The translations under genes and the position numbers were made by a program. A stretch of 55,949 nucleotides of DNA, filler included, from Dugesia japonica (Eukaryota): assembly GCA_001938525.1 (NCBI GenBank). It is 4 parts of 4 records of this genome, joined end to end, with 100 filler letters (N's around TTAATTAATTAA, not from the genome) between each part and the next. Parts side by side here need not be neighbours in the genome. Positions count along the whole stretch, not along the records: positions 34,463 to 55,949 come from MQRL01634241.1; 3 more parts are not named here. One strand, given 5' to 3'. Under the pieces are notes generated by a model. It was given only the letters and a program-made list of their open reading frames with translations, searched no databases and was not told the DNA's origin. Below are positions 6,030 to 52,420 of the stretch, piece after piece (positions within the stretch are counted from its first letter, which is position 1; every line of letters starts with the position of its first letter).

Positions 6030-6357
6030 CTAAAATTAATCATTTAAATCATTTTTGAAATAATTAGCAAAATAATTTATTATATTAAACAAAATCATTT
6101 AAAAAAAAGAAGTATACAAACGAGTGAAACTTTAAAAAAATCATATTCAAACTTTTCCACTTTTCATCAAGATGAGCTTGGATAAAATTGATCTATAATA
6201 TTTATATCATTCTTGTTTTTATTAAAATAGCACTAATTATACAACGTAAAAAGAATTGGAAAATAAAACAGCTTTTAAAGTGTGATGTATTTGTGTACTT
6301 TGAATTTAATAACAAATTTCTCTGATGAATAATTACAACTAAAATTTAATTTGTATA

Positions 6358-16268: not shown

Positions 16269-18063
16269 CTACATAGTTGTATCAGCCAGTTCGGACAGGG
16301 ATAATAAATCATTGCTTTTATCACTAGAATCAACAATAACATTCATTAAATTATTATTATTACTATTATCAATGACAACGGCAACACCGGGTGTATTTGA
16401 CTCAATGGGTACTGATGAACTCGGAGGACGAATTTGGTTAGAGTAGCTAAAATATTGATTTGAAATTGGAATATGTTGGGGTGTGTGATTATGATAATTT
16501 GAATTCTGGCGATAATTATTNTCTCTATATTGTTGCCTAATGGGAAGAGGGGATTCTTGATGTTGTCTAGGAGGCATTTGGGGACGCGGGAAACCTCTGT
16601 TACAGTTCTGATGAGAATTCATGTAGGATCGTTTTTCGTATTTGTTGTGATGATAATTATGCTGTGGTCCATTTGAATAAGTTTCACTTAAAGAACTTGA
16701 TGGTCTTCTATTTACGGTTTGTTGAAGTTCCCAACAACTACATGATCGATGGATTTTAGCAGCTTGTCTTTCACAACCGCAACAACTTGGAGAACGATAG
16801 ATATGATTTTCACGATAACCTTGATTTACCGAAGGCCGTAGACTTAATTGATGTGAACAACCTGCAATCTGTTGATTATTGCTTTGGTTTTGATTTTTTA
16901 ATTTCAAAACTGTATCATTTAATAATTCGAGTTTGTCTAATAAAGAGTTGACGTATTTTTTCATCGATTCGATTCCATTTACATCCTCTCTCGGTTGGGG
17001 GTAAGGTTGTCTGTAGGGATTAACTAATGGATTGTACATTGAAGGAGGTGGATAATAATTGGGGTTCATTGGCATTATGTTTGGGAAATTAAAAGATGTA
17101 GGATAAAAATTAGAAGGTCTCGGATAAGGTGGTGGATAATTTTGGAAATTGGAATATTGTGGCATTATTGCACAATTTGACTGATTTAATCCTCCAACCC
17201 ATGGATTAATNNNNNNNNNNNNNNNNNNNNNNNNNNNNNNNNNNNNNNNNNNNNNNNNNNAGTTTGTCTAATAAAGAGTTGACGTATTTTTTCATCGATT
17301 CGATTCCATTTACATCCTCTCTCGGTTGGGGGTATGGTTGTCTGTAGGGATTCACTAATGGATTGTACATTGAAGGAGGTGGATAATAATTGGGGTTCAT
17401 TGGCATTATGTTTGGAAAATTAAAAGATGTAGGATAAAAATTAGAAGGTCTCGGATAAGGTGGTGGATAATTTTGACAATTGGAATATTGTGGCATTATT
17501 GCACAATTTGACTGATTTAATCCTCCAACCCATGGATTAATGGATCTATTAGCCATTGGCATTTGGTTGTATGAATAAGTATTAGACTGATTACCATTTA
17601 GTAAATTAGGCATACTTTTCATATTATTGTTCTCCATATTGTACGGTTGGTATTCGTTAAACATTCTATGATTAAAATCGGGATATTTACCTTGGTTGAA
17701 ATAAGCTGATGCATAGCTAGCATGCTGACTTAATGGTCTAAATTGTCCATAATGCTGCGGGGCAGAACGATAAAAATTTGACTCTTTCATCATGGGTCTA
17801 GGATAATCTTTTTGAACATCACTATCAATATCTGATCTATCATTTTCATTTTCTGTAAATGCACAATCTAAAATCTGTGACGAATCTTGTGTTTTTTTAG
17901 CAATTTTTCTTATTTGCTCCATTGAAGTTTTCCAGGAATCAGCAGATCTGTCAATTTGTTTAGAAATTTTTGTATTGTTTTCTTCTAGTTTTTTCAATTT
18001 TAATAGTCGTAATTCTTCAGCTTTGTTTATAGTTTTATTCTTTGTCGGGGTGGGTCTATTCAT
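16269..18063 (-). CDS. Intronless low-complexity N/P/Y/Q/S-rich protein, ~487 aa after collapsing the gap-flanking duplication
   Basis: Two long ORFs share an almost identical segment (MPQYSN...NSLLDK) on both sides of the 17211-17260 gap; 189+298 aa when merged; short coiled-coil segments; no recognisable domain. Confidence 0.7.
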
Positions 18064-20409: not shown

Positions 20410-20912
20410 NATACATTTGATGTAATATAATTAAAAAGAACATGTTAAACCTTTGAATAACTTAATAAAATAATTGATAAATCTAAAACTGGGGATGGAT
20501 TAGTGTGAAATGTGCTCCGATGCCTAAATTAAAATTGCGCTTTTGGATATAAATAACTATATGGCATGAAGTATAAATTAAAGATGAATATTAAAATAGG
20601 TTCTGTAGTCAGGTGTCGTTTTATCAGAGCCGGTTTATTCATTGTGCCAACTGTGCCCTGGCACAGGACCCCGTCTCGGGGCCCAAAAAATAATTTAAAT
20701 AAAAAAAAATTGTATGTCCCTTATACTATTCTGTATGTCATCATCACCATATTTGATGGCTTAAGCTTCATAAGCGCGGCATGTGATTGTTTTAATTAAA
20801 AAAATACGTCATNNNNNNNNNNNNNNNNNNNNNNNNNNNNNNNNNNNNNNNNNNNNTTAATTAATTAANNNNNNNNNNNNNNNNNNNNNNNNNNNNNNNN
20901 NNNNNNNNNNNN

Positions 20913-24599: not shown

Positions 24600-25763
24600 A
24601 AATTAATAAGTCTTTCAAGCAAATTATATCAACACTTACTGCATTCGCATGCAAAGTGTAGATATAATTGCTTGTTGTACTCCATTAGCACTGCATCAAT
24701 ATCTTCTTTCTTTCATATCTTATTTAGCTGGCAATCTTCGATGTGCAGCTTCAGCATAGTTATTGCTACGACTCACTGTTCTAACGTTAGGTAATTTCAT
24801 TAACCAATGCCTTTAAAAGCCACATCAAGGTCATCCATTGGAACAAACGAAAGTGCGACTATCATTCTAGCAGTTAACGCAAAGTCAAGATCATGTTATA
24901 TTGGCAAAGCAGGTCTTTGTCTTCTAGTTTCTTACGCATGTTCTTCGTCAAATAAAAGAGGCATCCGTAGATTGTACAATTTGGAAACGTTTCAAGAACA
25001 ACACTAATTGCGGCCTTCTCAAAATCTATAGAAACTGATAAGGGACTGAGATGTAGCCACAATTCTTTAATAGCATCAAACATTCGTATGTATGCTTGAC
25101 TTTCATTTTTTTGTAATATAGCATATAGAACAGGTAGTAGGAATCATCATCTGTATGCCATGATTACGTATATGTATCAGAGCAGGAGCCAAGCTGAATA
25201 TTCTGTCTATGTACAATTTTTCCATCTGCATACTTCAATCACCATTCGACTGTCGGTCAGAAAGAAAAATTCGATTTACATCTTGCTCACGTGAATCCCA
25301 TGAAAAAAATTCTTGGATTTGATCTGGTGTGACTTTGTACATACGATATGCATCCTGAATGATAATTGATGCTCGATCTGTAATTTTGGAGGAGTTGCGC
25401 AATTTTGTTTCTAGTTCACTGAATAACCTTTCGAATAGCGTCCTTCTTTGGAATCTTTGCTTGAACTAAAGTCGATGTTCCTTACAGAACACTGTTGAGG
25501 ATCATTGGCGGAATTTCTGTTGTCTCCGTTCCAGCCTTGATCATTGCAGCCTGAAGTTGCGCTGCGTGACTTCAATGAATATGCTGGTTTATCTGCATCA
25601 AAACCTTATCACTATCTACAGTCGTATATAAACGGACCTTACATTCGTTCTTTATCTCAGATCACCAGAACTTCTTGGAAAAGTCTACAGTGAAATTATC
25701 AAATACATAGAGATATCCTTCGTGCATAATTTTTTTGCCACGCTTTGATTGAATATTTTCCAT
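24600..25763 (-). mobile_element. MULE/Mutator transposase pseudogene with N-terminal FLYWCH finger
   Basis: MENIQSKRGKKIMHEGYLYVFD...KFW...CKVRLYT (FLYWCH); SIDFEKAAISVVLETFPNCTIYGCLFYLTKN (MULE DxE...CxFH); LSFVPMDD. Confidence 0.85.
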
Positions 25764-28412: not shown

Positions 28413-29650
28413 TATTAGGTTGTCATATATGAAATGTCCGATTACGTAATAGACAATAAAATCAATAAAAGTCCAATAAAATCAAATTTTATTTAAGTAA
28501 AATAGTCATCGTCGGATTCTACACCTTTTTGACATCTAGAAACTAGTTTCAAAATACCTTTAGCAAATATATTTATTTCTCTGGAGTCTATGAATTCGGA
28601 TATGGCCATTTTGACACCCTCCCGATTAGCAATGATTTTTTAAATAAAAAATTATCAAAATGTTTAAAAAAATGATAATCTGTCGGAGATAAGTCAGGCA
28701 ATTATGGTGAATGTGGCAAAGTTTCAATTTTTAAGTCTGTCAACTTTTGCGACGACTTCTTTGTCACATGTGATCGGGCATTATCATGCAAGAGTATGAT
28801 TCCTTTCCTATTGACCATTGAAGGCTGTTTAATGCATAATTATTTGTGCATTAATTCAATTTCAGAACAGGATTTGTCTGAGTTAATAGTTTGACCTTCT
28901 TCTAACAAAGAAAAATGTATGACTCCAGCTATAGACCACCAAACTGTCAGCATTGTCTTTTTCGGGTGTAAATCCGGTTTAGGACAGTGTAAAGGAGTTT
29001 GATCGGCATCTAACCATTGTGCAGAACGTCTACGATTGTAATGAATAACCCATTTTTCATCACAAGTGACAAGGCAATCTAAAAAAGATTCCGATTTATT
29101 TCGATCCAGCAGCATTTGGCAAATTTTCAATCTTTGCGATTTTTGGGAATTATTCAATAAATGAGGAACCCATTGGTCCATCTTTTTTTTCTTTCCAATG
29201 CCTTTCAAATGACGGGAAATTATTTGACGAGTAACGTCCAACGTTTTACTAAGTTGTCGTACTGATTCACTAGTGTTTAGTTCCACTTCACGTTTTACAT
29301 CGTCGTTGCTAATGACAACCCTGGGGCGCCCCCTTTCCACATTGACCCGGGTTAAATCACCATTTTGAAATTTGTCGAACCATCTCCGAAGAGTTCTTTC
29401 ATTAGCTGAACCCTNNNNNNNNNNNNNNNNNNNNNNNNNNNNNNNNNNNNNNNNNNNNNNNNNNNNNNNNNNNNNNNNNNNNNNNNNNNNNNNNNNNNNN
29501 NNNNNNNNNNNNNNNNNNNNNNNNNNNNNNNNNNNNNNATAATTTAAATAAATAGATTTTTAAAACAAATATTATATAATGATAATCAAATATTCCACCT
29601 TCAAAATGATATTTAAATAAGTTCTAAATGTTAAATATTACATAAAAATA
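28413..29650 (-). mobile_element. mariner element with disrupted transposase
   Basis: TATTAGGTTGTCATATATGAAATGTCCG TIR end; ERGRP, WVPHLL, VTCDEKWV, HPKKTMLTVWW, LHDNARSH and PDLSPTDYHFF. Confidence 0.9.
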
Positions 29651-30578: not shown

Positions 30579-31518
30579 CTAGTTCAAATTTTTCATTAGG
30601 AAAGCAGAATGGTATAATTGATTTATTTTTGCTCTTTCTTTATAATTTCTTTTCAGGCAAGAACTTATGAACAATTTCATATCATCGCTACTATTCGGCG
30701 GGTAATAAACTTTGAGCTTTCCTGATAGGATATTTGATACCATTTTACGAATATCTAATTCGTGATGAGGATGTCTTCCTAAGTTATTCATAAAGAAATA
30801 ATATGCTACGAATTGTTNNNNNNNNNNNNNNNNNNNNNNNNNNNNNNNNNNNNNNNNNNNNNNNNNNNNNNNNNNNNNNNNNNNNNNNNNNNNNNNNNNN
30901 NTCTGGACTCATCCAATTGAGAGTGGCCACTGTTGATTGAACAACACCATTTAATAAATCTCCACTAGAAAGATCTATCAAAATATTAGCCAATCCAAAA
31001 TCACACAATTTCAAATCATCATTCTCATCCAACAATATGTTATTTCCTATCAAATATCAACATTATTATGTCAAATAATATTGAATTGCCTTTAAGATCT
31101 CTGTGCAATATTCTATTATCATGAAGATATTCCAGACCTTCCAATATTTGTCGAGCAAATTTAGCAATTCTAGGTTCAGGAAATGGGCCTTTACCTTTCA
31201 CATATGATCCAAGACTGCCCTGTATAATCAATTTAATTATTTTGATTCATTTCATTAATTACTTTCTCCATATATTCCATCAAAATACACAAACTGTGTT
31301 TTTTAATGAAATGATTTTCGTATTTAATAATTCTAGGATGAGATTTTAATTTGAAATAACAATTAACTTCTTGAAATTTTTCTTGTCGAGAAACCAAATC
31401 CTTAGATATATCAAACTTTTTCAATGCCAATATTTGATTTGTCTTTTCATTTCTGCATTTGTAAACCTTCCCAAACGATCCTTTGCCTAGTGAATCCTTC
31501 AGTTCAAAATCATGCTTT
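30579..31518 (-). CDS. Ser/Thr protein kinase catalytic domain, MAP3K/STE-like, spliced
   Basis: LGKGSFGKVY, ALKK, HPRIIKY, LMEYM, QILEGLEYLH, HRDLKG/NNIL, LKLCDFG, TLNWMSP. In-frame introns at 31262-31220 (GT-AG) and 31089-31047 (GC-AG); acceptor before 31518. Confidence 0.88.
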
Positions 31519-32269
31519 CTATAAAGTTAGCAAAATATTTTATCACTTGAAGAATTCTCGTTATTACAAATCAAAAGATTTTGTTTAAAATAAAATATAA
31601 TAAAAATTTATTCATAAAAGATGTTCTATAAAAATTTCGTCTAAAACATTATTCCATTTTTGGATCTATAAGAAAATACATCTAGCAGCTTGAGAATGCT
31701 GTAAATTTAACAGTCTTTTTTTTATATATTTACTATCATTTATACATTAGTTAAGAAATCAAAATTTCTTAATGGCATAATTTGAGTTCCAAATTATCGG
31801 AAACATCTGATTCTTCAAACAGAAATTTATCAATAACTGAGTCGCTTTTCACATGAAGAAAAAAAACCAAAAGTTGTGACATAGCGTTTAAAATAATTTT
31901 TCAAATCAATTGCAAAGAACCAATGAAATTATATTATTGTTAGTACACACATCCAAATATGGTTTAACGAAAGCATTTTGAATTTTAATTACAACTGTAT
32001 TCAAGATAAATAATATTTTCATTTTAATTTCCAATATTCTTCAAAACCTTAATCTAAAATAGTGTATTATTTTTCAAATTAAATAAATCTAATTATTGAC
32101 CAAATTTATATTGCAAAGTAATGTGAAAGAAATTAAACAGACGAAAGAAGATATAAAAAGTGTCGATTAAGTGTAAAGAAAATAAAGACAAGAAATTATA
32201 GATTTCGTAAGAGAAGAAAGATGCAGATGATTTAACAATGTCATTTATAAAATAACATCTCACATTTAT

Positions 32270-33772: not shown

Positions 33773-34362
33773 TGGGCGAGTATTTCATAATAAATTGTTA
33801 TTTGCTTGCTATTAATTTCACTGTTATATAAATCTCGCAAATCTTGATCATTTCTGATTTGATTGATTTTACCAGAATCAGAATACAATTTTATAACTGA
33901 GTCATGAAGTTGATATTTCTTGCATATTTTGTTAATTANNNNNNNNATATCAGATATTTCTGTGATCGCAAATGATTCGTATTTTTCTGACAAAGGAATC
34001 ATTGAAGCATTGTACCAAATGTTACTCAGACGAGAACTATTATTAGATAATATTTGTTAAATATTTCATAATATTACGTAAGAATTGTCATATTTAATGT
34101 GTCGCCATTATTTATCCAATAATCATTTAATCGGTAATCATTTCTCATTTCTGAATCATTATAATTTAACTTGATTTGCTTCGAAGAAACACTCATTTTC
34201 TGACAAATCTGTTGTTTTAATATACCAACTGAGCCATATTTATTCGCATAAATGACATAACAATTGTGGTAATACTTTATATATAATGGTATAATATGGC
34301 AACTATCTAATTCAACAGTACATCCATTAATCAATTTGCATTGCATCAATGTTGTTACGTCA
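33773..34362 (-). CDS. Ubiquitin-like domain plus PB1-like domain exons
   Basis: SVGILKQQICQKMSVSSKQIKLNYNDSEMRNDYRLNDYWINNGDTLNM (Ubl); an in-frame 41-bp intron at 34077-34037 joins it to ...IKLYSDSGKINQIRNDQDLRDLY (PB1/OPCA-like); donor at 33772. Confidence 0.6.
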
Positions 34363-34462
34363 NNNNNNNNNNNNNNNNNNNNNNNNNNNNNNNNNNNNNN
34401 NNNNNNTTAATTAATTAANNNNNNNNNNNNNNNNNNNNNNNNNNNNNNNNNNNNNNNNNNNN

Positions 34463-34514
<52 letters not shown>

Positions 34515-37500
34515 TAATAATAATGACACTATTTAGAACATTTAAGAATAAGGATAAGTTATCAGAAATAGTTAAACTATTATATTCTTACACAAAAATC
34601 ATTTCTTTACAAAGTATTAGTGGTCCTATTAATGTAAAAACCGATTTATATGAGACTTTAATTTTTAGTAATTTATAGAATTTACAACAGTAATAACACT
34701 ATAAATGATATAAACAATCTTTTCAAAATAGATTTATTTTTCTTTGAGATTAGTCTAAACTAATTTTCAACACGATTCGATAAACCCTTAATGTTTATAA
34801 TATTTAATTTAATGTTATTATTTTGTAAATATAAAAATATTTATTTAATTTTTTCTCAAATTAAATTTTTTGAATTGTTCTATACTGATTAGAAATTAGT
34901 AATTATTACTTGAGAATATGTTGAATATTTCAAACAAACATATAATGTATTTCAAGGTTATTCTACACGCGATTTCTAATTGGACAAGGAATTCAACTTT
35001 CAATTTTAATTTCAATAATTTTGAATTATATCTGTCTCCTGATTATTATAAATAAATTCTTCTAGTACGTGTTAAATATTAACTATAATTAGTCTTAATA
35101 ATGCATTGATTAAATTTTATTAGTTTTGACCTTTGTAATATGGAATATTTTATTTAAATCAATCGCGAGACATTTTNCATCAGAATTATTTTTAGTACTA
35201 TAATAATAATAATGGTAATAATTATAATTATTATTTTTATTAATAATAATATTACATTAATATCATTTGCTTTCAATATTTATGTTGATTTTAAATTAAT
35301 TTACTTTATTATCTATTTTGTAATTTATTCTCGGACACTATAATGATAAGGTTTAGACTAATATACAAAATTTTCCGACATATATTTATTTATTTATTCA
35401 TTTAAATTATTAGAAAGAAAAAAAATGGATTTAATGATATCATTCTCATTGGTAAAAAATTGAAATACAAAATATAGTTATTAATAAAATTACGATAATC
35501 AATGAAACAACAGCCCTATCATTATCATTAAAAACGTTTTCGTAAACACTAACAAATATCATTCCACATTTGATAAATGCCAAAAAATAAGTTAATAATT
35601 AATCATATTTTTCCAGATTTTTTTTGTTTAAATGTGAATTGTTATTGATTGAGTTTGTGTGTTGTCACACTAAAATTGAGTGGGTAGTCTCATATAGAGA
35701 TGATCAAATTTCAATTGGAATTTGCTAAAACGTAACGTAGAAAAATTTTATTCGAATATTCTATGAATATTCATGTATTTATTTTATGATTGTAGTTTGT
35801 ACACTTCTTTTAACGTTATAGTTAAATATATGAACATTGTTAACAGAAATTGTTTAAATTAATAAGAAAATATTGAAATCAAAATTACGTGAAATAAATG
35901 AAAATTTTCTTTCAGTGGGTTAATTTTAAAAGGACAAAAAAAATTTTTTAAGTAAAATTTTGTAGAGGTTTTCAATCACGTTAAATAGTGAATGAATTGA
36001 ATATAAGCTAAATTTACAATATAAAAGCATGAATCTTTCTGTATGGTGCATCCGATTCCTGGAATACTAATGATTTTTTCGTTACCGTACAACCAGTATT
36101 CAGCTCTTCTGAATACCGGGATTTTAATACTGAAGACCTATCCATAAATGAAATTATTCAGATTTTCGACTACCCTCCTTCCTCTTGTCATAAAATGTCA
36201 GACTTCTTTAAATATAACGACAAAGCTCTGAACCGTCTTTACAAAAATGTTGGGCTGAAAAGGCCATTTAATAAAAGAAATATTAAAACTAAACGAAGCA
36301 GTGAAAAGAGGAGACAATAAGATTCACGATTAAATGAAGTGGTAAAAGGAATAGAAAAGCGATAATAAAGAATAAAATAAAATAACGGCTTCAATAAATC
36401 GATAAATTAAATGAAAGTAATTAAATTAATAACAATGAGAGAAATGAATAGAAAATAATAATCAGAATACAAGAAACAGATAAACCGGAATCATCGGAAT
36501 AAATTAAAATGTCGAATTATTGCATAAATTTAAGATTTAATTATTGAGAGAATTAAATAAACTCAGAAACCAATGATTATTAAATAAAAATATAATAAAA
36601 GGGGACATTAATAATCGAAAGTGCTCACGACAATGATGAACCGATTAAAGAAAGTAAATGATAAATTCAGAGATAAAATAATNATAATGAAATACTAAAT
36701 AAAGAACGTGAAAGAAAAGAATAATAATTCAATTATTAATTAATGAATACTTTATACCAGAAATATAAAAGGAATTTAATTCAATATGAAATGCTCAAAG
36801 AAATAATAATCAATGAATTAAAAGCATGAAAGCTCACATGATATAAATGTGGCTCACGAAAATAAAAAGCAACTCGAATAAACCAAAATTAAATGTATGA
36901 ATTATGTTAGGAAATGGTAAAGAAGAAATAATAAACGAAATCGAAATTAGAATGTGTGATATATTATTATTTATAATTATATNNNNNNNNNNNNNNNNNN
37001 NNNNNNNNNNNNNNNNNNNNNNNNNNNNNNNNAATATAATAAAATAATTAATGTAAGAAAGTAGGATTAAAACAAAAGTATTTTAATAAAAGATTTTATT
37101 AAAATTTATTGGAATTATTATAGAAAATAAATGAAATAGATTGGTATTATCATTATAGGTAAAAAACATTAAAGAAATTATTATTAGGCCGTTAGGAAAA
37201 ATCTAATTACTAAAATAAAGTCTTTTTATAAATAGACTGTAATATTATTGTTAATTTTAGTTAAATATTATTAATTATGAAGAAGGAATTGGAATTGANA
37301 GACCGGAATTATATGTAATAAAAGATAATAGAAAGTTAAATTAATATTTCAAAAGCATATTGAATTAATTACATTTATTCATGTAGAAATCTTTATGTAC
37401 ATTTTAGAAACAAACTATGGAAATTATTATTATTTTACAATAAATATTATTAAAATTATTATTATAGTATAAATAGTATTATGTAAAAGAAATAACTGGA

Positions 37501-39199
37501 ATACGGAAATCAGAATTAGATGCAAGGAAAGATCGTAATAAATTATGTTGGATTTTTATAATTATATTGAATTATTTATATTTGGTCATGTACATTTTCC
37601 AAATTATATACTCAGAACAGACTTTCAAGAATTATTATTTTAAATAATAAATATGATTATTTTTTAAAAGCAGCTCGTACCACATCAGAGGTTGCAATTT
37701 TTATAGGCACCAATACAGGTTTCAACTGATCGGTTTATTCTGAAACATGTGTCGCGTGAGTACCGCACATCATATGTAGATAAGAAAATTATGTGTATTG
37801 AGTGAGCACCAAACACAATGAATGTAATATCAACGAATAAAGTTTATATCGGGTGAGCACCGAGAAACACTAAAAATCTATGATGCTGATTGAGCACCGG
37901 TACTCATATGAGTATTGAAATTAATACAGATAAAAGATGAACATCTAAATGCAAATAAAAAAATGACTAAATTTAGACATTATGAACGTCGCATGATTCA
38001 GTAAATTTGTAGAAAAATTGAAGTGGGTACCTACACCACCTGTCAAAATATGACGATTAATTTTGATATAAAAGAAGTTACAATTTACACAAAATTTTTA
38101 ATTATTTGATATATCTCAAATCTCTTAAAAAATTTGTGACTCTGGTTATCTTATTGTTAAAAGTTACCAGTAGTTTTTATATTTCCAAAACTATCATCAA
38201 CAAACGAAAATTAATTTTTACTTTTATTTATTTATTAAAATTATATGATCGGAAGACTGGGACGATGTTTATCGTTGACTGGCAGCACTGGCAATGATGG
38301 ACATCAGTGCTCATAGATTCGAATTAATACGAGATTATCTACCATTACATTATAAGAGCCATGAAAGATGTTGTTATATTATGAAAGTCATAAAAGATGT
38401 TACTATATTATGAGATGATATTACGATATGAAAGTGGTTCATGAAAAATCCTATTATGTGAAGTGAGTTAATAATGAGATTGGTTGATGACAGTATGAAG
38501 AAAATGTAGAATATGAAAGCGATAGAGGTGTAGTTATGAAAGGATTACTGAACGAGGATGGTAATGAGAGATGTGGTTTAAAAATGAAATGAGGTGAATA
38601 CGAATTGGGTTGTTGAATTCTAGAAATAAATATGTCTCTATTTACTGATATGTGGAGGTTGAATTCTATCTAATGGTTATTCAGATATTTACTTTTTGTA
38701 CAGTTATATTGCGGTTGTGCCTGTAATGAAAATATTAAGTTGATGTTCGATTACCGATGAACTTTATTATTTTAATCATGTTTCATATTATTGTTTATAC
38801 ATAAATTATTATAAAATATAATTTGATACTTCATTATATAGAATTTTAATATAATAATGCACGTGGACCATTTGTTACGATAATGGAGATAGATTTCCAA
38901 GTGGTGGCACCTAATGAATAAAGATTAATACGGATTATGACAAACACGAAACCTCAATTGACCACAGATTTATGAATTTATGTAGCTTATGCTAAATCAT
39001 GAAGGTTTCACGAAGATGATCTAACTCCTTCTACTCATGACGAATGATCGGTGATCTGCGATAGTAACTTGGTTAATTTAATTCTTTATTAAATGGATGT
39101 TGTCATACAAGAAGTGGTTGGTATTGATTAATATATCAATAATGATTAAACGTTATAATATTCTAATACTCAAAATACTCTCGTCATATAACGAAAACA

Positions 39200-39694
39200 A
39201 TGGCAAAAGATTCGCTAAGCAACGAGGGGTGCTTCTTTAATGCAAACTAATGTAACCGCATGCCTATTTTTTTGGATTCACTTGGATCGGATAGCACATA
39301 TGTAGATCCATGGTGGATTACGGAGGATCACCTCAAGTAGAAAGATTTTCAGATCACCAAGTTGAAAGAGCAAGTTTTTCAGCAGGCAGAGACTCTAGAG
39401 AATAACCGGAACATGCTTGAGCATTTACAAGAACGGGTGGATAACCAAGAACAGACTTGTTGAATTGACGGGAGAACGAGAAGTTCCATAAAAGGAACTA
39501 GTTGCATTGCTCGTTCGCTCTAACGAATTGGCTCAGCAACAACAGAGGTAAATAAAAGCATTACGTGCCACATACATTAAGACAGAGGAATATTCAAAGA
39601 TGTCAGATCGATTTTCTTTTAAATAAGGACCATATTGCAGCTGATCCTGATTCCATTATATGAAGAAGAAATTTTTGTCGAGACAGTTGTGTGA
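39200..39694 (+). pseudogene. 'PWWI' family coiled-coil protein, diverged copy 3
   Basis: FNAN*CNRMPIFLDSLGSDSTYVDPWWITEDHLK*KDFQITKLKEQ...ELVALLVRSNELAQQQQ aligns by eye with 12227-12896. Confidence 0.55.
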
Positions 39695-40604
39695 TTCAAA
39701 CTATCTGTTTACATTATAATATAGTTTTAGTTTTTAATTGTTTTCTTACTATCGGGCAAAATGTGCACATAGAATTTTACGAGGAATTAATGTGATAACA
39801 AGATTAAGTTGTGGTAAAGATTAAATTCGATGATTATAAAACTTAAATTTAGTTGATGATTTTCAATACGGATAAATTGACAAATTTCATTCATAAATAT
39901 AATTTGCTTTCAGTTATAAATTATAAATCTAAACACAAGATGAATGCTAATTTCTTCATAATTGCAGTGTAAAATCCGAGAAAGCTGACCGACTCATCAC
40001 TATCGGATATTCGGAAGAAGTAGTGTACTGTCCAAAGAAAGTTACAATCTGAAATCGTAGATCTACAACGAAAGAACTCATCGTTGCGTGAGGCAAACGT
40101 GAAATTGAAGGTAAAGGATCTGGTCTTACCACAATCTTAAATAATTGAATTGAATCCGGGAATGGGAGATTTTATTGCTAGAAAAAGCAACGAAAATGTC
40201 TGTGGTAACTAGGTATCATCCTCCCAGACAGAAATGATATTGAGGAGAAGAAAAAATTATTATCGAGATATTAAAAATAAAGATCAGGAGAAACGAATAT
40301 TAAAGCAACATCAAAAAGCCTAGCCACCCAACAAAAAGAACATTATTTCAAATAAAACATTTTATTCATGACATGCTCTGTCTGCTGAATGTTCTGATAT
40401 TTGTAAACCCTGACTTGTTTGAACAACTGGTAAAGAATGAGGAACAAATCTATATGTTGTAACCCTAAAATAAGAGCTTCTTGGTATAGAGGAGCACTTA
40501 TTGTTAGTGTATTTTACAATCTGTATCAAGTATTAGCTTGTTCTAATCTCTAGTCAAATTGCATTGTAACGAAAGTTCAGACCTTGTTGGTTTTGTTATT
40601 AAAA

Positions 40605-41163
40605 ATTTATTTTAAAAAATCAATAAAAATTCCCAGGCACGTGTTGCTGTATTGCATTTATATCGCATTCCTAATGCATTCATTATTAAAACATTGAGGT
40701 TGTTTGGATATTTATGTATGATAACGGAGAGTCTTGCTATTTTTGATATTATTGCAAGATTTTAGGCAGTCTTAAATTTAAATAAAATTAATTATTATGA
40801 CAAAATTTTCAAAGAGAGTAGTCTTTGTGATATTTACATGATAAAATATTCAAATAAAAACCTTTTTTTACAAGATGATAAAAACAGAACTTGTTTCATA
40901 AAAAATATATTACTAGTGACAATTTTCTATAAAAAACATTTTAGTCATACAATTTTTCCATAAAAACATTAGCGATGCAACTTTTAATAAAAAATCTCAT
41001 AAGCGAAGAAATTTTTAATAAAAAATCTTATTACATATTAATCATGCAATTTTTTTATAAAAAAAATTTTAGCGATGCCATTTTTAATAAAAAATGTCAT
41101 TATCAATGCCAGTATTAATAAAAAACATATTAGCTGAAGCCTTTTCTGTACAAAATGATAAAA
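40605..41163 (+). repeat. Left terminal inverted repeat (inner portion only)
   Basis: AAATCAATAAAAATTCCCAGGCACGTGTTGCTGTATTGCATT... is the reverse complement of ~47440-47902 with scattered substitutions; contains ~30-bp degenerate AAAAACATTAGCGATGCAATTTTT units. Confidence 0.9.
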
Positions 41164-41524
41164 AAAACGAAATTATTTTCATAAAAATCATAAATTCACG
41201 AAACCTTTCCATATATAACTAATAAGTATAAATAAAACTTATAAGAAAATATTTTTATGATTGTATATGGTTAATGAGTGTATTTTTTGCATATTTACCT
41301 TGTATTATTTACATAGCAACCGTGTAATATAGGGGTTATGAGTGTATTCTTTACATATTAACAGTGTACTAAGATGTTGTCATGCAAAATTATTAGTTCA
41401 TGAAATTAATTTATTCAAGATATTGTTTTTGTTTAGTTAATATTATAAAAAACCTAATTTTTTTACTAATTATAAAAAAAGAAAACAATTATCCAATAAA
41501 ACATTTATTACTACAACATTTTTT

Positions 41525-42034
41525 GTGATATTCTTCAGTCATCTTCAAATTTTTTCTTTTAAGGTTTCATAAAATTCCTGTTTTCATTGAAAAGGAAATC
41601 CAATTGAAGTTCTATGATGAAAATGTTCATAACTAGATTCATGTATATTACTGTTGTCTGTAATAAATGATTAAAATATTCATTCATCATCAATCGCATA
41701 TATTCATGAAGAAATTCTAGAAACATTTCATGTAATATCCCCAACGCTAATTCTAAGAAAAAATAAAGTTAAATAAAATAATAATAAATTAAACACTTAC
41801 CATAATAATTTTCATAATTTTTGTGTCCAATTTCAGTATAACCATCATCACCATCACTGTCATGTTTTCATCATCCAGTATTTGTTCATCTTGAATGATT
41901 GCTTGTTCATTTACTTTTTCTTCATTAATATTCATGGTTCCGTTATCAATGGCATCCTGGTTAGCAATATTTTTAAGATCTCTTCCGCTTTAATTCTGAT
42001 TTTCAAAAGAATTTACCAAAGTATTAAAATGCAT
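41525..42034 (-). pseudogene. Spliced acidic accessory gene of the Maverick, unknown product
   Basis: ATG at 42034 after a TATA box and initiator; intron 41800-41753 (GTAAGT...TTAG) joins ENYY to ELALGILHEMFLEF in frame; exon 1 has stops or frameshifts; overlapping AATAAA/TTTATT at ~41497-41509. Confidence 0.5.
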
Positions 42035-42242
42035 TTTTGTAAAAGTGAATTTATTTTAAAAAACAAGTCCTATTTTTATAAACCCGGTAACCAATCATAA
42101 CTGTTAAAACAAATATTAACAAATCATATTAATTATAGCAGATGTTAACCAATAGGAACTCGCAAATAACGAGTATGTGTGTATCGCAACTAGTATATAA
42201 GCAAAGGCTTACATAACATTAATCACTTTTACAACTCAAAAA
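42034..42242. promoter_or_regulatory. Divergent twin TATA+initiator promoters
   Basis: Plus strand: TATATAA 42194, TCACTTTTACAA 42223, ATGCAT 42242. Minus strand: TATAAAA 42080, TCACTTTTACAA 42048, ATGCAT 42034. Two AACCAAT boxes lie between them. Confidence 0.65.
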
Positions 42243-42557
42243 TGCATGAAAATCAACAAACTAAGGAAAATATCTCAACAATAACTGTGGAACTAGGGGA
42301 AATTAGTAATTTCTACAAATTCAAGTTGTTCTTTTTGAGGACAACAATTATATATGACTTCAAAGTAAATTTTTTATTACATGTTATAACTTAATATTTC
42401 TTTTTAGAAACCAGGATCAATAAAAAGATCCAAATTTAGTTTGCTTCTATCTGGAATTCATGAGAAGGATAGGAATATTCTAGAAGCTCTGTTTGCAAGA
42501 TTAAACAGACAAATCGAAGTCAGTGAGGCTATTTATATAAAACTTTTTATATCATAA
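42242..42557 (+). CDS. Spliced 90-aa accessory protein of unknown function
   Basis: Exon 42242-42364 (41 codons), phase-0 intron 42365-42407 (GTAAAT...TTTTAG), exon 42408-42557; open frame throughout. Confidence 0.55.
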
Positions 42558-42742
42558 AGTTTGAAATCATGCAGTTCTAATGGTTTCTTACAACCCATTA
42601 TTCTACATTTTCCTGATCTGAAGAATATAATTGTATATTTGTCAGTTTTGACTTGGAATTGACATGGTTTGCCTTTAGGAAAGCTCATTTTCTTTGTTAC
42701 TTCTTGCGTCACCTCACCTTGGTGATTAATATTGTTAATCAT
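42533..42742 (-). pseudogene. TATA-binding-protein-like ORF (one TBP repeat, truncated)
   Basis: MINNINHQG...PCQFQVKTDKYTIIFFRSGKCRIMGCK resembles the TBP repeat pattern NI...LIFxSGKxVxTGAK. Confidence 0.6.
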
Positions 42743-42821
42743 AATTAAAGAAGAACATTGGGGTTTTGATGGAATTAATTTAATTGATCCGTTAAAACAA
42801 ATATAAGCAATGTAATAAATT

Positions 42822-43467
42822 ATGAATAAATTTAAGAAAAACAAGATGGAGAGATTAAGAAATGACCCAGTCTATCAAATTGTTGGACCTAGTGATAGAG
42901 GAAAAACTTTGTTTGTATGTAAATTATTAGAATCAAAGTTATTCGAGTCTAAATTAAAAAACATATACTGGCATAGGGGCGCCGATAAGGATCATGGATT
43001 GATTAAATCTGAATTTTGTAATATTAAAATGAAAATTATAAATGGTTTTGATTCTAATTGGTGCAAAAGACTAAGACCAGGTGATGTTATTGTTGTTGAT
43101 GATCTGTATCAGGAAGCAAACAAAGTAAAAGATTTCAATAATTTTTTTCACAAAGATAGCGAGACATCGTAATGTTGTTGTGATATTTATTACGCAAAAT
43201 CTATTTCATTAAGGGGTTAGTCATAGAACCCGCAATTTAAACGTGCAATATTTGGTTCTATTCAAAAATCCCAGAGATCAAACTGTTGTTGATTTTCTAA
43301 CAAGACAAACATATCCAAATAAGAGACAATTTTTTATTGAATCCTTTCCAGATGCCACAGAAAAACCACATGGATATCTATTTATTGACTTTAAACAACA
43401 ATGTCCAGTTGACTATAGAATGAGAACAGATATATTCAATCCAAATGGTATCACAATATATAAATAA
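42822..43467 (+). pseudogene. FtsK/A32-like DNA packaging ATPase (frameshifted near 43150)
   Basis: Walker A IVGPSDRGKT, Walker B VIVVDDL, RHRNVVVIFITQNLF, YLVLFKNPRD and PHGYLFIDF...RMRTDIF, all typical of Polinton ATPases. Confidence 0.92.
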
Positions 43468-43755
43468 AATAGTTAATTTTTGCATAATATTTCAAAAAGT
43501 GACAAAACTAAAGAAATTTGTAGTTGATCAAGAAACTTTGGTGTTGTTAAACGTCAAATAATATCTTTTGAGAAGAAAAAGTATGGAAAAAAGAAGAAAC
43601 AATCGCATAAGAAACATCATATAAATAAGAAGCAATGAGTAAATAAAAGGAATATGTTTAAAAACTTGCAAAAAGAAGTGGAAAGAAGCTGAGATTGATG
43701 AACAGAAAAGCGATTATAAACAAATAAATGGTATGTATTATTTTAATAAATAAAG

Positions 43756-44074
43756 ATGAAATTACAAAGAAGCATTTTGTTTTTTAGCTTTGATTAAATC
43801 ATCAAAACCTTTTAGAATGAGAATTATACAATCATTTCCACCATATTTTATAGATGATTTACTTGAAATTATTATAAATATTGTTCGTGGTAATGTAGAT
43901 TTCAGTACAGCCAAAACGAAAACATTGAAGAAACATAAAAAAAACTTTATTAACGCTTGTAAACACAAACAATAGAAAATCAATGAGACGAGTAATGAAT
44001 AATCAAGGTGGTGGCTTTATAGCAGCATTGTTACCAATTGCATGGCTGCATTAGGCTTAACTTATTTCAAATGA
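43756..44074 (+). pseudogene. Conserved small Maverick virion-module protein with GNV and QxGGF motifs
   Basis: LLEIIINIVRGNVDFSTAKTKTLKKHK...NQGGGFIAALLPI, with frameshifts; QGGG-F resembles an adenain cleavage site before a hydrophobic helix. Confidence 0.7.
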
Positions 44075-44149
44075 ACAATGGGTAGATTGCGATCATTACC
44101 TAACTTTGACCTGAAATTTGCATCAAATTGTTGTAATGGAGACAAAGAT

Positions 44150-44524
44150 GAAGACAACATATACGGATCCAAAAAACCTTACAAGTTTTTTAGGCATAAA
44201 AAATTTGATGAAAGCAACTCAAAAAACGAAATGAAAAACAAAAAAGTGGTTATCTGGACAGATAGGACACAGCCTAAACAATTCAATGTTGAAAAGAGTT
44301 TCAACAAGAGCATATAAAGCATATGGTATTGATGATTTATGGTATTTATGATTTATCTAATTGAAATGATTTCATTTTCAAAGATTAATAAAATTTACAA
44401 GTATATTTTGTCTTTTATCGTTGTATTCAATAGATTTGCAAGAGCTGTTCTATTTTAATCAAAGAAACTGGAAAGAATAAGCAATACGAAAACTAAGTTG
44501 GATATTAATAAGCCGCAAATTTTG
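44150..44524 (+). pseudogene. Polinton retroviral-like integrase, N-terminal remnant (most of the core deleted)
   Basis: KWLSGQIGHSLN...RAYKAYGIDDLW..DL..EMISFSKINKIYKYILSFIVVFNRFA matches the Polinton INT consensus WLxxQxxYTLH...IDxxWQADL...NxGYKYILTVIDVFSKYA. Confidence 0.75.
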
Positions 44525-45600
44525 ATGAAATCTAATCATTTCTATATGCTTTTACCTAGTAATAGTAGTTCACTAGTTCATACAAATAATACTGCTAGTA
44601 ATTACATAGTTGAGCTTCAAAATTCAATTTACATGGATGGTAGATGGGAAGTTGCTATGGTGGATTTCACCATTGTATATTCAGCTATGCCGATTTACAG
44701 TCAATCTATGATTGATTATGAATTATTTACTATAATTGAGAAGGAACTAATACTTGATGTTAACAATAAAGAACAAAAGTTCTTTTAAATGTTAATTCTC
44801 AAGACAAATATAAAAATAACAAGGAAACAGTCATACAATTATCGAATGAAAATGTATTGATCTTTACTAGTGATATTACATACCACAGTTTATTATTTGA
44901 AAATCGGGAAACTAGAAAGAAATTTTCACGTATTAGCAGTGAATATTTAAGTGAAAAGACTAAATTAGATTTTTATGCTAGTAAGAATTTTAGAGATAAA
45001 ATATTTTTTCTTGGCTTTCACTACTTTCAAGATGATGATTCCATTGAAAAAATAAAAATTAAATATTATTATTCGATTGTAACTAAGCATTCTTTTCAAT
45101 TCGAATCGGAATTGTATTTAAAGTATTTAAATCAACTAAATGTCTATTTTAAGAAACACCTTCTAAAGTTATTTAAAAAGTTTACATTAAAACAAGATGA
45201 ACTATTTGAATTTACATTAGCAACTAGAATTAAAATGTTAAATTCAATAAAATCTTAGCAAAAACATTAGGATTAAAAGAATCGCAATATACTCGAATAT
45301 AATTGAATGATAAACAACTACTATATAAAAGTAATAAGAAACCTAGAATATTAAAGTTTGGTAGTGAAATGTTCATCTATTCCAGTATTGGTGAACCTAT
45401 AATTGTTGGAGATGTTAATGTTTCTTTATTGAAAGCAGCATGGATAGAAGAACATGAGAATGATTAGGTAGTTAATATAATTGTTTCTTCATCATAAATA
45501 AACAATACAGAAATCAATATACGTGATGATAGTGGACAACTAGTCAACTTTGCTGAAGACTCAAAAACACATATAACGTTACATTTTAGAAAAATTAATA
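44525..45600 (+). pseudogene. Minor capsid protein (penton), disrupted
   Basis: N-terminus FYMLLPSNSS...NNTASNYIVEL...GRWEVAMVDF; C-terminus MFIYSSIGEPIIVGDVNVSLLK...INIRDDSGQLVNF...ITLHFRK. Confidence 0.85.
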
Positions 45601-45828
45601 ATGAATCCTGGTACTGTATCATTGTATAGTACTAGTCAAGCAGAGGGAGAAATACCTTACTTTCTTGAAAAACAGTATGAATCTGGTTGGTTATGAACAA
45701 TAGGGAGATTTGCTTTGCCTATTCTTAGACGTATTGGTTCTTTTGGTATGAAAACAGCTCAGAATGTACTACCTAATGACGGAAAAATGCTACCTACTTT
45801 GAAATCAAATGCATTAGCTGAACCTTGA
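45601..45828 (+). pseudogene. Small QxG-motif amphipathic virion protein ('cupiennin'-like adintovirus protein)
   Basis: YSTSQAEGEIPYFLEKQYESGWL*TIGRFALPILRRIGSFGMKTA matches a degenerate YxxQxGG..PxF..QxGxG..LxR...PxL pattern; lies between penton and major capsid. Confidence 0.65.
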
Positions 45829-45884
45829 AATGTAGTTTCTTCCTTACCTAATGGAGTTACCAGTATGATTCCAAATTATCACAA

Positions 45885-46857
45885 AGCGATGAAGGTTTTT
45901 TTATAAATGGATCTCAAACAGACTATTTGGATTTGAATGATACTTTATTGAATATTAAAGCAAAAGTAGTTGATAAGGATGGTAAAGATTTGACTGATAC
46001 GGATAATTCAGTTCCTAATAACTTTATGTTGCATGCGCATGCTAAGGATGTAATTCTTTCATTTAATAGTTTTAAAATTGAAGGTGGAAACGGATCTTAT
46101 CTTCACAAAGCATTGATTGAAACTATAATAACTTATAATGGTAATAGTAAGAATATATGTCTTACATCAATGGGGTATGGATCAGAAGCAGATAGAAAAA
46201 TTCTATTGCAAAATAAAAACTATTATCTCTATGTGATTGTTTGTAACTCAATTTCATGGATAAACCAAAATACTTTATTCCAGGTGTCAATGTTCATATT
46301 CGATGGAAACGAGCATCTTCTAAGATTTGTTTGAAATCTGCAGTCAATGGATCTAAATATGTATTACTAAATGGAAAAACGTTGAGGGGTTAAACTTTCA
46401 GTACTAGCTGTCAATCAACTTGGACTAAAAACGCAAAATTCAAAGTAGAGAACAATTAATGATAGTTATAAAAGCTCTAGTTCAATATTTAAAAGTCTAT
46501 AATGCTGTTTCTGTTTTCTTGACAAAAAACTCCGATTATCGAGAAATATATACTCAAGATTTTACAAACGATAATTATACCACAACATATATGCAATCTA
46601 TAGTAAGAAATATGGGATATTTGGATAAAAATAAGAATTGTGGAATAAAACTTAGTGATTTTAAGGACAAATATCAATTCTTTATATTTGTTCTTGCTGC
46701 AGATTTTGATATAAATCAGAGTCAATTACCTCAACATCGAAATTTGAGATTGAATATCAAATTTGCCCAAGCTTTAACAACATCGACATATTTTATAATT
46801 TATTGAGTATTTGAAAAAGAAATTCAGATTAATGACAACTGAACAGTATTGGTGTAA
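45885..46857 (+). pseudogene. Major capsid protein (double jelly-roll), with deletions and frameshifts
   Basis: FFINGSQTDYLDLNDTLLNIKAKV...PNNFMLH...SYLHKALIETII; C-terminus FIFVLAADFD...NLRLNIKFAQAL...IIY*VFEKEIQI. Confidence 0.88.
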
Positions 46858-46919
46858 ACAATATGTTGTATAATTGGTACATGTCATGAAGTAAGTGTTA
46901 ATATATTAATGATATTTAT

Positions 46920-47290
46920 TTTAATAGTACTATTCAGATTGATCAGATTGCATCAAAATGGCTTGGATCAGCATCACTAGGTTTTTATGCGTTAGATAAA
47001 CTTCCAAAATATATTCCAGTAAACAATGCCTTGATTGTCGATACTCATACATTAAATCTAGATGGAGAACATTATATTGCTGTTTACAATAAACCTGCTC
47101 AAATACTAATATTCGATCGATTAGCATTTTATTATCCATCAATATTGGTGTCACACTTATCTAAATTAACAAAACCAATAGTCTACATTAAAGCCCGATA
47201 TCAAAATTCATTTACAACTACATGTGGTCAATATTGTTTATTATGGTTGAAAAAACAACATTGTACTTCACAGATTTTTTTGCTCTTGTT
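46920..47290 (+). pseudogene. Adenain-family maturation cysteine protease
   Basis: GFYALDKLP, IVDTHTLNLDGEHYIAV (His), IFD (Asp), YQNSFTTTCGQYCL (Gln/Cys); frameshift near 47010-47030. Confidence 0.88.
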
Positions 47291-47439
47291 GTATAAAATA
47301 AATGTCTTCTTTGAAATGAAATCTTTGTTATTTATTAAAACAAGGAATAAAACTAAGAACAAAATAACAACATTTATTTAGAAAATATTTGTAATTAATA
47401 TGCTATTAATGCATGTTTTTATTATTATTTGGACACGTT

Positions 47440-48555
47440 TTATTATCATTTTGTAAAGAAATGTTCTCAGCTAATAGGTTTTTTATAAACAAATTGCATG
47501 ACTAATATGTTTTTTAATTAAAATGTTGCATTGGTAATGGGACTTTTTATAAAAAATTGCATCGCTAATGTTTTTTATAGAAAATTACTAAGCTAATATT
47601 TTTTTATTTGAAACAAGTTCTATGTTTTTATCACCTTGTAAAGAAAGGTTTTTATTTGAATATTTTATCATGTAAATATCACAAAGACCCATCTCTTTGA
47701 ATATTTTGTCATGTTAATTAATTTTATTTAAATTTAAGACTGCCCAATATCTTGAAATAATATCATAAATATCAAGACTGTCCATTATCATACATAAATA
47801 TCAAGACTACCTCAATGTTTTAATAATGAATGCAATAGGAATGCAATATGAATGCAATACAGCAACACGTGCCTAGGAATTTTTATTGATTTTTAAATAA
47901 ATATAATAAGTATGCAACTCAAATGCAACACAGCTGCAACACACACACACTAAAAATTACATGCCTGAGAATTTGGACTGCCCCAAAACATGTTAAATAT
48001 AGAGACTGTCCATACCATGCAATAATATCAAAATATCAAGACTTACCACACCCTGTAAAATATAGAGAAAAGACTGTTCATACCATGTAAAATATAGATT
48101 GCCCATACCATGTAAAATATCAAGTCTGCCACATCTCATACAAAATATAGATACTCCCCCATCTCATGCAAAATATAAAGTCTGCCCAAAAAAATTTTAA
48201 TTTCCCATCAAAAAAAAAATTTGAAATTTCCTGCCAAAATATTTTTTTTTGAATTTCGCGCCAAAAAATTTCCTCTTCAAAAATATCCAGACTCCTCTCT
48301 TCCTCCTTCAAAAATAAATATTAAAAACAAACTTTCCCGTATAAAAATACTCAAAAATACCAGTATTTTCAATAAATTCATCATTTTAAGCAAAATACAG
48401 CATTTTTACTCAAAATAAAGATTTCAAAAAATTATTACGTCATACCCACCCGCCAGATAATTTTTAAATAAATCTTAGAAAATTTGATAATTAATTCTCT
48501 TTCAACCCATACCATTTTCCCCTGCCGAAATGTTTTTTAACACACTTATACTACT
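47440..48555 (-). repeat. Right terminal inverted repeat (~1.1 kb) with subterminal tandem motifs
   Basis: Inner 47440-47902 mirrors the left TIR; the outer part has repeated AGACTGTCCATACCATGTAAAATAT units and ends in ACTACT (48550-48555). The outer boundary is inferred from that motif. Confidence 0.75.
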
Positions 48556-49251
48556 TACAAATATCAACTAATCAAATTCAGGCACTAAAAATTCGAAATT
48601 CTTGCACAATGGACAACATGCGTATACTCCATCACGTAACCTTTCCAACAACTTTTCCCTAAACAAAATCCATCAACTACCAACAAACCTATTAACAATT
48701 AAAAAACACTACACGATAACTCATACGTCTGTGGCAGTGTGCCACTACCCTTCTAGGAAATACCATTCATCCAACCTCATAAGTTTTTTAGACAATGTAT
48801 AGACTAAAGCTCAATAATCGTGGACAGCAATCGTAATCAGCCGGAACACCGTCAACTATCAACGCCAGACAGCTAAACACATTTCTGTGATATTTTGACT
48901 TGCTTAATTTTGGAATGTTTCTTATTAGCAGCTGATGCTTATTTAAACTAAAACGTAAGAAATGATCCTTTTTGGGAAGAAATTGTTTTCAATTCTTGTA
49001 ACCAATTATCAGCTTTAACTTGGTCATTTGTATCATTTTATGGAATTTCACTTTTCAACCAGTGCTTCTTGGCTAATCTTCGTGCTTTGTGTAGAAAATT
49101 CCAGAATTTATGCATAAAAAGACGCTAGTATATTTTACTTTTATCCTTTATAGCTGTCAATTCTATGCAAAAATTAATTTTAAATTTTATTATAAACAGA
49201 CAAATTAAATTTATTTAAATCAATAAATAAAACAATAATTAATAAAATAGT

Positions 49252-50508
49252 TACAGGGATATTCAAATCTATAAGTACTTTTATGCTAATCTATAAGTAC
49301 TTTTATGCAAACCTATTAGTACTTTTATAAAAAAATTTAAATTTCTTAACCATTCATGAGTAGGAAACCTAAAAAGATTATCACCAGTGATATTTTCAAT
49401 CTTGCTATAACAATGTTGGATTCAGAAAAATACACCCTAAAGGATATCGCATCCTCATTGCACATAAGTACAAATGCTTTGAGAAATTTAATTGCGAAAA
49501 GAGACTCTGGTAAAGTATTCGTTCCAGCAAATGAAAAATACAAAGCCTCTTGTAAAAGAAGAAATGACTCTCTTAATATAGTGGAGCAAACTATATTTAA
49601 TACAATTTCGTGCAATAATTTTATTGTACAAAGAGAGATAAAGGCGAATGTTCTTGAAACTACTAATTTAGAAATATCACAATTAACAATTTGCCGAAAA
49701 TTAAAAACGCTTAAGGTTAGTAGAAAGATGCTTTCACTTGTTCCAAATGAAAGGAACACTGTAGACAGAAGACAGGATCGTGCGATTTATGCGACTGAAA
49801 TTGAGCGATTTTTTCCAGGTGAGACTGGCTTTAACCAGCATACAAGAAGGCATTATGGCTGTTCTACTATTAATATCAAGACTTATATTAATGTTCCAGC
49901 AAATAGAAATATTAANNNNNNNNNNNNNNNNNNNNNNNNNNNNNNNNNNNNNNNNNNNNNNNNNNNNNNNNNNNNNNNNNNNNNNNNNNNNNNNNNNNNN
50001 NNNNNNNNNNNNNNNNNNNNNNNNNNNNNNNNNNNNNNNNNNNNNNNNAAAATATTAATAATGGATAATGCAAGAATACATAAAACAAGAGCTGTTTTAG
50101 AGGTATTAAGGCAGAATAGTATTTCCTATACGCTTTTAGTGCCATACTCTCCAGAATTGAACCCGTTAGAAGACTTTATTTCAATGATAAAAGCAAGATG
50201 CTGTTCATATAAAATTCAAAGGCCTGATTTGTCGATCGAAAGAATCTTAGATATTATTTTAGCTGCTGAAAATTCTTATATAACCCAATCGTAGGGGGTT
50301 TATAAAAATATGAGGAGATGGATTGATAAAGCAAGAAGAAATGAGCCTTTCATCTAATTTTTAATAAAATTTCTACAAATATTTGTTATTATTTAAAAAA
50401 AACTTGTTTTTTTAACCATGTCTGTGTGTGTTTTGCTTTGAACTAAAATGTTTGACTTTGTAATTTATTTGTACAAATTTTTTTCAAATTTTTTTTAATA
50501 TCACTGTA
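49252..50508 (+). mobile_element. Tc1/IS630-like DD34E transposon; transposase 49356-~50357 disrupted
   Basis: TACAGGGATATTCAAA / TTTAATATCACTGTA ends; HTH; GETGFN (first Asp lost), IMDNARIHK and PYSPELNPLE with 34 residues between D and E; three subterminal CTATAAGTACTTTTATGC-like repeats at 49265-49329. Confidence 0.88.
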
Positions 50509-52033: not shown

Positions 52034-52420
52034 TACAGAGGGTGCAGCATTACTTCCCAAACAACGTTGACCAGTTTATACTTAGTCACAAAATCAGTAG
52101 GTGGTCTTGTGTTGTTATGGGGAAAGACCACATGCTCCTTTCTTGTCAATTTTATGTTTAATCGGAAATATTTTCTTTAATTTGAACACAGTTTCCTATT
52201 GCATTGTTATTTTAATTAATTGGAAACAGCTTGTAATAAAGAATGCATTTTCATTCCAACTAAATACATAGGAAACTGATAAGTTAACTGAACCTCATCA
52301 TGACCTTCGACGACTAATGTTGTTCTAAACAACCTATTTCTCGTTCCCAGTTACGATCTGCTTAAGCAATAGATTCACAGGGAATAGTTTTTATGGCTAA
52401 CTTTTTCATTTTGAAAATTC
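52034..52420 (-). mobile_element. mariner remnant
   Basis: Minus strand gives VVFPHNNTRPPT (HDNARPHT) and upstream IVTGNEK (degenerate VTGDEK); TACAGAGGGTGCAGCATTACTTCCC terminus. Confidence 0.6.

Follow-up and report, generated by a model that had tools for sequence, protein, structure and literature searches.

The DNA analysed here, referred to as the window, is a stretch of 55,949 nt from Dugesia japonica (assembly GCA_001938525.1), made of four parts joined by filler. It is AT-rich (mostly 14–35% GC per kb) and contains 34 runs of N. Positions ∼40596–48555, in the part taken from MQRL01634241.1, hold the remnant of a Maverick/adintovirus, of which 7,960 nt are present; with positions 37300–49915 free of N, the element falls within a single contig. 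It shows long inverted repeats, an A32-type packaging ATPase gene and a double jelly-roll (DJR) major capsid gene, and no DNA polymerase was detected in it. A first-pass annotation of the sequence had likewise described an endogenous Maverick/adintovirus lacking a family-B DNA polymerase of the protein-primed type (pPolB), with all of its genes in the same orientation. The seven plus-strand genes do lie in the order then given; a TBP-like gene on the minus strand had been missed, as had two accessory reading frames, all three lying in the interval from the left repeat to the ATPase gene (Table 1).

The longest inverted repeat of the window pairs positions 40605–40886 with 47623–47904. The core of the repeat (40596–40940 versus 47567–47909) aligned with 314 matching positions, 23 substitutions and 8 gaps, and the extended pair (40596–41131 versus 47382–47909) reached a score of 563, the maximum in 100 shuffles being 39. 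About 6.25 kb separates the inner ends of the repeats, close to the ∼6.3 kb initially estimated. With 23 substitutions between the arms over the 337 core positions aligned, the insertion is old. The two arms are not equal, however. The right arm runs ∼650 nt further (47905–48555), while the left one starts in the middle of the right-arm sequence. Neither the left end nor any other place in the window holds a copy of this outer right repeat, indicating that the left terminus has been lost. Displacement of the outer left repeat upstream by an insertion was also considered, and was rejected because no match was found in positions 1–40595. One repeat unit recurs in the outer right arm and in the inner arms (47993–48043 matches 40730–40781, E = 2e-5). 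The end motif given for Mavericks is (AGT)2//(ACT)2 (PMC8097293); here, an ACTACT end motif was seen at the right end without a left counterpart. The window has 10 occurrences of this hexamer on this strand, and the probable right terminus was assigned from the hexamer together with the continuity of the repeat. Mavericks have a target site duplication of 5–8 bp. The 6 nt that follow the right end were not found in positions 38000–40700, the left terminus being lost. Tandem subrepeats of 31 nt and of 26–38 nt are present inside the repeats (40894–41134, 47469–47607 and 47729–48239), and their copy numbers differ between the two arms.

The ATPase and the major capsid protein, both named in the first-pass annotation, were supported by their relatives. 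For the ATPase, 48 of 55 candidates were relatives, with identities of up to 75%, and 44 of the 48 carried PF04665 (Pox_A32). An A32/FtsK packaging ATPase, one of the features by which Mavericks are recognized, is thus present. A GTDB search with the ATPase alignment, which gave at least 600 pattern matches, listed among them one Walker A hit of 45 residues, from a bacterial metagenome-assembled genome and irrelevant here; a search of a phage collection gave no match. The capsid piece had 12 relatives of 406–412 aa among 315 candidates, and the fold was modelled on the intact P0083, which shares 65% identity across the part used as query, with the 12 relatives as input (predicted local distance difference test score, pLDDT, of 70). 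The model matched the major capsid protein of Faustovirus (Z 24.1, root mean square deviation 3.7, 343 aligned residues), as well as those of PBCV-1 (Z 24.1) and mavirus (Z 16.7), unrelated folds remaining below Z 8. The model of P0083 gives this capsid family a double jelly-roll fold, another feature expected of a Maverick. The best match of the model in BFVD was R9XLG5 of Cotesia sesamiae bracovirus (25% identity, E = 1.5e-22), which is presumed to be a Maverick-derived protein. R9XLG5 is distant and has another genomic setting. A PDB sequence search with the capsid relative returned chance matches only.

The element had been regarded as a compact design with a full virion module. The capsid gene is 976 nt long versus 1,218 nt in P0083. 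Compared with each of the 12 relatives it lacks the first 36–39 residues; a further block of ∼40 residues is missing internally (residues 229–268 of P0083; 236–265 uncovered in all 12). At least five separate deletions were found in the element: at the left end, at a junction in the TBP-like gene, in the integrase and, twice, in the capsid gene. Stops and frameshifts are distributed across all of its genes. The decay noted in the first-pass annotation, with stops, frameshifts and deletions in the integrase and the major capsid gene, was found in both genes, and extends to the left end. The module is not complete and the small size does not reflect a compact design; instead, the left repeat, the capsid gene, the integrase and the TBP-like gene are each partly deleted.

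No pPolB was detected in any of 30 six-frame tiles covering positions 41180–42832, a search in which the TBP control was recovered. The window holds 159 stop-free stretches of at least 55 aa, 147 of them examined in one scan and the other 12 in separate scans. None of them matched a DNA polymerase, although very short or decayed fragments could escape; the scan of the 147 stretches did detect decayed pieces of gypsy, mariner, MULE and Tc1 elements. Family-B polymerase motif patterns gave no match in the element and one loose match outside it (at 52383), while three of three control patterns were found. A minus-strand frame at 42170–42530 was considered as a polymerase remnant and rejected, since it matched no motif or profile and the plus strand reads better. 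The absence of a family-B polymerase both between the repeats and elsewhere in the window, as first reported, was thus confirmed. In group 2 Mavericks, an SF1/SF3 helicase is reported to replace the polymerase (10.64898/2026.06.19.733378). The Walker A motif of the ATPase was the sole Walker A-like match in the element, so that a helicase substitute of this kind is absent. Mavericks/Polintons are described as elements of 13–25 kb with terminal inverted repeats of 100–1,500 bp (PMC10748475), a size that the 7,960 nt present here do not reach. The repeats of the element, with the left arm truncated, are of the length given for the family. Since neither the polymerase, or a helicase in its place, nor the length expected was found, the element was classified as a defective derivative rather than an intact Maverick.

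The TBP-like gene starts at 42742, head-to-head with the ATPase gene and separated from it by 104 nt. A word-indexed homologue search with the TBP-like piece returned no candidate; a full HMMER search over 1.84 billion representatives found the family, with 34 matches (P0049–P0082) that included 31 short proteins. The other three (P0061, P0079 and P0080), being long repeat proteins, were set aside as spurious. Among the 31 short relatives, 26 match PF00352 and 24 contain the second-repeat motif. When complete they are mostly 144–183 aa long, with a divergent first repeat, and one of them, P0050, aligned with solved TBPs across both repeats (E = 3e-13). In an Atlas search, 28 of 30 matches of the TBP-like gene fell in TBP-bearing clusters at ∼0.93, which is below recognition level; viral, nematode and Nucleocytoviricota entries are among the members of these look-alike clusters. 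The relatives have the two repeats of a TBP with LIFxSGK-type motifs, whereas the window copy keeps the first repeat only. A profile built from 18 natural relatives (154 positions) matched the window at profile positions 2–78 only, the match stopping at ∼42506, and the second repeat was absent in all six frames. The plus-strand accessory gene that converges on the TBP-like gene is probably cut at the same point. Two converging genes meet at the cut, as the deletion of an intervening block would leave them. The first-pass annotation had named a deletion junction private to this copy, for example one near 42530, as part of what would speak against a polymerase-less family, and a deletion junction does lie at ∼42506 in the TBP-like gene.

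Table 1. Features of the Maverick/adintovirus remnant and their positions in the window
Feature	Positions	Strand	Remarks
Left terminal inverted repeat, inner part only	40596–41131	+	Core 93% identical to the right arm in reverse complement
Remnant of an accessory gene (acidic N-terminal part)	41502–42034	−	Putative 48-nt GT-AG intron 41801–41754; stops, frameshift
Remnant of an accessory gene, convergent with the TBP-like gene	42242–42554	+	Putative 43-nt GT-AG intron 42365–42407
TBP-like gene, first repeat only	42506–42742	−	Pfam TBP E = 0.002; one in-frame stop; homology ends at ∼42506
A32/FtsK-type packaging ATPase, full length	42846–43467	+	Frameshift near 43150–43160; one in-frame stop
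Presumed small GNV/QxGGF protein remnant, frameshifted	43754–44060	+	Motifs at 43889 and 44004; gene order
Presumed rve-type integrase remnant, ∼400 nt, N-terminal part	44133–44530	+	Motifs at 44160, 44325 and 44402; stops, frameshifts
Putative minor capsid (penton) remnant, three frames	44525–45602	+	N-terminal motifs at 44525–44656, C-terminal motifs at 45519–45593; position
Presumed small QxG amphipathic protein remnant	45601–45878	+	Sequence; stops; runs into the truncated capsid gene
Double jelly-roll major capsid remnant	45879–46854	+	Frameshifts, stops, two missing blocks
Presumed adenain-like cysteine protease remnant	46929–47300	+	His 47064, Asp 47109, Gln 47196, Cys 47223
Right terminal inverted repeat, ∼1.17 kb	47382–48555	−	ACTACT at 48550–48555, probable terminus

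These observations are best accounted for if the element is the dead fossil of an ordinary, full-length Maverick/adintovirus that lost its replicase by deletion, most likely at ∼42506 after insertion, and we regard this origin as probable. The parent would have been a normal 13–25 kb element with a Beta-class virion module, integrated by its rve integrase and replicated by its own polymerase; its DNA would have been packaged by the A32 ATPase into DJR capsids, as the family suggests. After insertion, the copy would have decayed by point mutations and by five or more separate deletions. The deletion at ∼42506 would have halved the TBP-like gene and most likely removed a replicase block that lay between it and the converging accessory gene, and the loss of the polymerase would be private to this copy. 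The TBP-like gene, likely to have belonged to the parent element, most likely encoded a viral TATA-binding factor that would have aided host RNA polymerase II at AT-rich viral promoters. Decay of this kind is common in the family, 96% of vertebrate Maverick loci being degraded, with the intact ones measuring 12.7–24.6 kb (PMC8097293). Relatives of normal size also fit this origin, since 7 of the 48 ATPase relatives and 4 of the 12 capsid relatives are on contigs of 10–20 kb, and one ATPase relative and one capsid relative each list a contig of 16,200 nt. Several points weigh against it. No sister copy was seen in the 56-kb window and no polymerase fragment is left at the ∼42506 junction. The contigs of 10–20 kb reveal no gene content and may hold host flanks, and the three closest ATPase relatives are on contigs of only 2.4–6.6 kb. 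Further, polintons without polB are reported to amplify in Pieris mannii (10.1101/2025.02.07.637071).

This last report is an argument for the next most likely alternative, in which the replicase block was deleted only once and the short element was then copied and integrated in trans by full-length sisters able to recognise its repeats, as a non-autonomous subfamily, this copy decaying later. The Pieris mannii polintons were amplified, and the dataset of that report includes the cupiennin/GasderminX group (10.1101/2025.02.07.637071). In addition, the inner repeat arms of the element described here are kept at both ends. However, neither a second copy nor a second repeat was found in the 56-kb window, and among so many unrelated deletions another one is unsurprising. 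A survey of a lizard genome also described an apparent absence of non-autonomous Polintons (PMC3014272). A subfamily of this type is consequently unlikely to be the origin of the element. A wider proposal, that of an animal Maverick lineage with its own divergent TBP, spliced accessory genes and a replicase-less subfamily that full-length sisters helped to copy and package, appears quite unlikely. Of the two possibilities raised in the first-pass annotation, a deletion derivative or a replicase-less family, the former is thus favoured by the ∼42506 junction and the other deletions.

The loss could also have arisen during assembly, if the replicase block and the outer part of the left repeat had gone missing through a chimera, or the collapse, of two diverged copies of a multi-copy element. 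The 34 runs of N, the blocks duplicated around gaps (698 and 563 nt) and the ∼7% difference between the arms would agree with this, but the absence of N from 37300–49915 places the element in one contig, and every gene has its share of stops and frameshifts, the pattern that true decay would leave; an artefact is thus decidedly improbable. Finally, a natively replicase-less or segmented virus, in which the element would be one segment or a satellite and the polymerase would reside on another element sharing its termini, could explain why genes for the virion, integration and transcription persist between long repeats, and the VC40 subgroup of polinton-like viruses (PLVs) is described as lacking detectable replication genes (10.64898/2026.06.19.733378), but a gap inside a gene is not expected in a natural compact genome and this explanation has very little probability.

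The remaining genes of the virion module were less well defined. The names integrase, penton, adenain, GNV/QxGGF and QxG are provisional assignments that we base on motifs and gene order. None of the five was identified by Pfam, PHROGs, NCBIfam, PDB or single-sequence fold prediction, so that, of the gene list first proposed, the ATPase and the capsid received library support and these five did not. The ∼400-nt remnant of the presumed rve integrase had no library match, and neither the second Asp motif of an integrase nor its Glu motif was found by pattern in the element. PDB sequence searches with the integrase remnant and with adenain gave chance matches only, and the single-sequence model of adenain had a pLDDT of 36. 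The Beta-class module is described as including cupiennin-like and GasderminX-like genes (PMC8502044). Two small genes of the element are at positions that would fit these, GNV/QxGGF as the cupiennin-like gene and QxG as the GasderminX-like gene, and the gene order appears to fit a virion module of this class. A lysine-rich, decayed frame without a Pfam match lies between the ATPase and GNV genes (43470–43750, plus strand), and is possibly another small basic gene.

Neither accessory gene matched a known family, and all scores of an Atlas search with the segment 41562–41753 of the minus-strand gene were under 0.9. Both may have been spliced. The exon frames on either side of the putative intron 41801–41754 agree (22 + 64 open codons), as do those flanking the putative intron 42365–42407 (57 + 49 open codons, versus 8 + 5 and 2 + 10 in the other frames). 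The window's plus strand carries nine instances of the intron pattern of the latter.

Other mobile elements were seen in the window. A frame for a Tc1/IS630-like DDE transposase, with an N gap inside, is located 800 nt to the right of the element (49350–50294, plus strand). Two remnants of mariner (Mos1-type) transposases (6851–7504 and 28840–29559) and a MULE transposase fragment (24877–25143) are on the minus strand, and gypsy-like RNase H and integrase fragments on the plus strand (962–2125). Pfam matches were also obtained, all on the minus strand, for a protein kinase in three pieces (30582–31526), a ubiquitin-like domain (34077–34361) and the N-terminal part of Headcase (5821–6039). A long Q/P/N-rich frame on the minus strand (16269–18063) had no Pfam match, and a 281-nt block in it is duplicated across an N gap. 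Near-identical blocks flank other N gaps (698 nt at 11922/12915 and 563 nt at 18518/19487, N being counted as a match), and 12-nt AT islands lie between paired N runs (11910–11921, 20857–20868 and 34407–34418). These near-identical blocks and AT islands are scaffolding artefacts.

The element resembles Mavericks/Polintons in its long terminal inverted repeats, A32/FtsK ATPase and DJR capsid, in its probable ACTACT end, and in remnants positioned as an integrase, a penton, an adenain and two small membrane-active proteins. It differs from them in having neither PolB nor a substitute helicase, in its size of ∼8 kb, in the lost left end and in that all of its genes are broken. The TBP-like gene and the two putatively spliced accessory genes also set it apart from intact vertebrate Mavericks, which are described as having intronless open reading frames (PMC8097293). 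The polB-less polintons of Pieris mannii are likewise flanked by repeats and keep other hallmark genes; they carry LINE or gypsy cargo and were amplified (10.1101/2025.02.07.637071), whereas the element described here is one decayed copy with no cargo transposon and no evidence of mobility. Since polB-less polintons that amplify are known in that species, a replicase-less family would be less new than had been assumed. Replicase swaps have, further, been reported for PLVs (10.1101/2023.10.16.562556).

A TBP gene has been named for a MELD virus, in a section on non-animal datasets (PMC8502044, 10.1101/697771), and this virus likewise combines a TBP-like gene with a midsize linear dsDNA genome (PMC8502044, Figure 5). 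Compared with cellular and archaeal TBPs, the family found here aligns to both repeats of the solved proteins but is shorter and has a divergent first repeat. Its link to Mavericks comes from the sequence of this one locus. A literature search, the scope of which excluded Repbase, figures, subscription journals and supplements, gave among the matches listed no description of TBP in animal Mavericks, Polintons or adintoviruses. TBP is not mentioned in the accessible parts of PMC10748475, PMC11161782, 10.1101/2023.10.16.562556 and 10.64898/2026.06.19.733378. One supplement of PMC8502044 contains neither TBP nor any of four planarian terms or six motifs, although TBP genes could appear in the animal adintovirus maps of that source's figures or of bioRxiv supplements.

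The Maverick remnant itself is ordinary; the fresher observation is the TBP-like gene placed head-to-head with the ATPase gene and the two putatively spliced accessory genes. Genes missing from single decayed copies are poor ground for proposing a new genome design. If sister copies were to share the ∼42506 junction, animals would offer a second case of polintons that move although they lack a polymerase of their own. If the TBP-like gene proved to be regular in a Maverick lineage, it would offer a first handle on how the genes of these elements are switched on in the animal nucleus, and a viral TBP with a rewired first repeat would be directly testable for its promoter preference.

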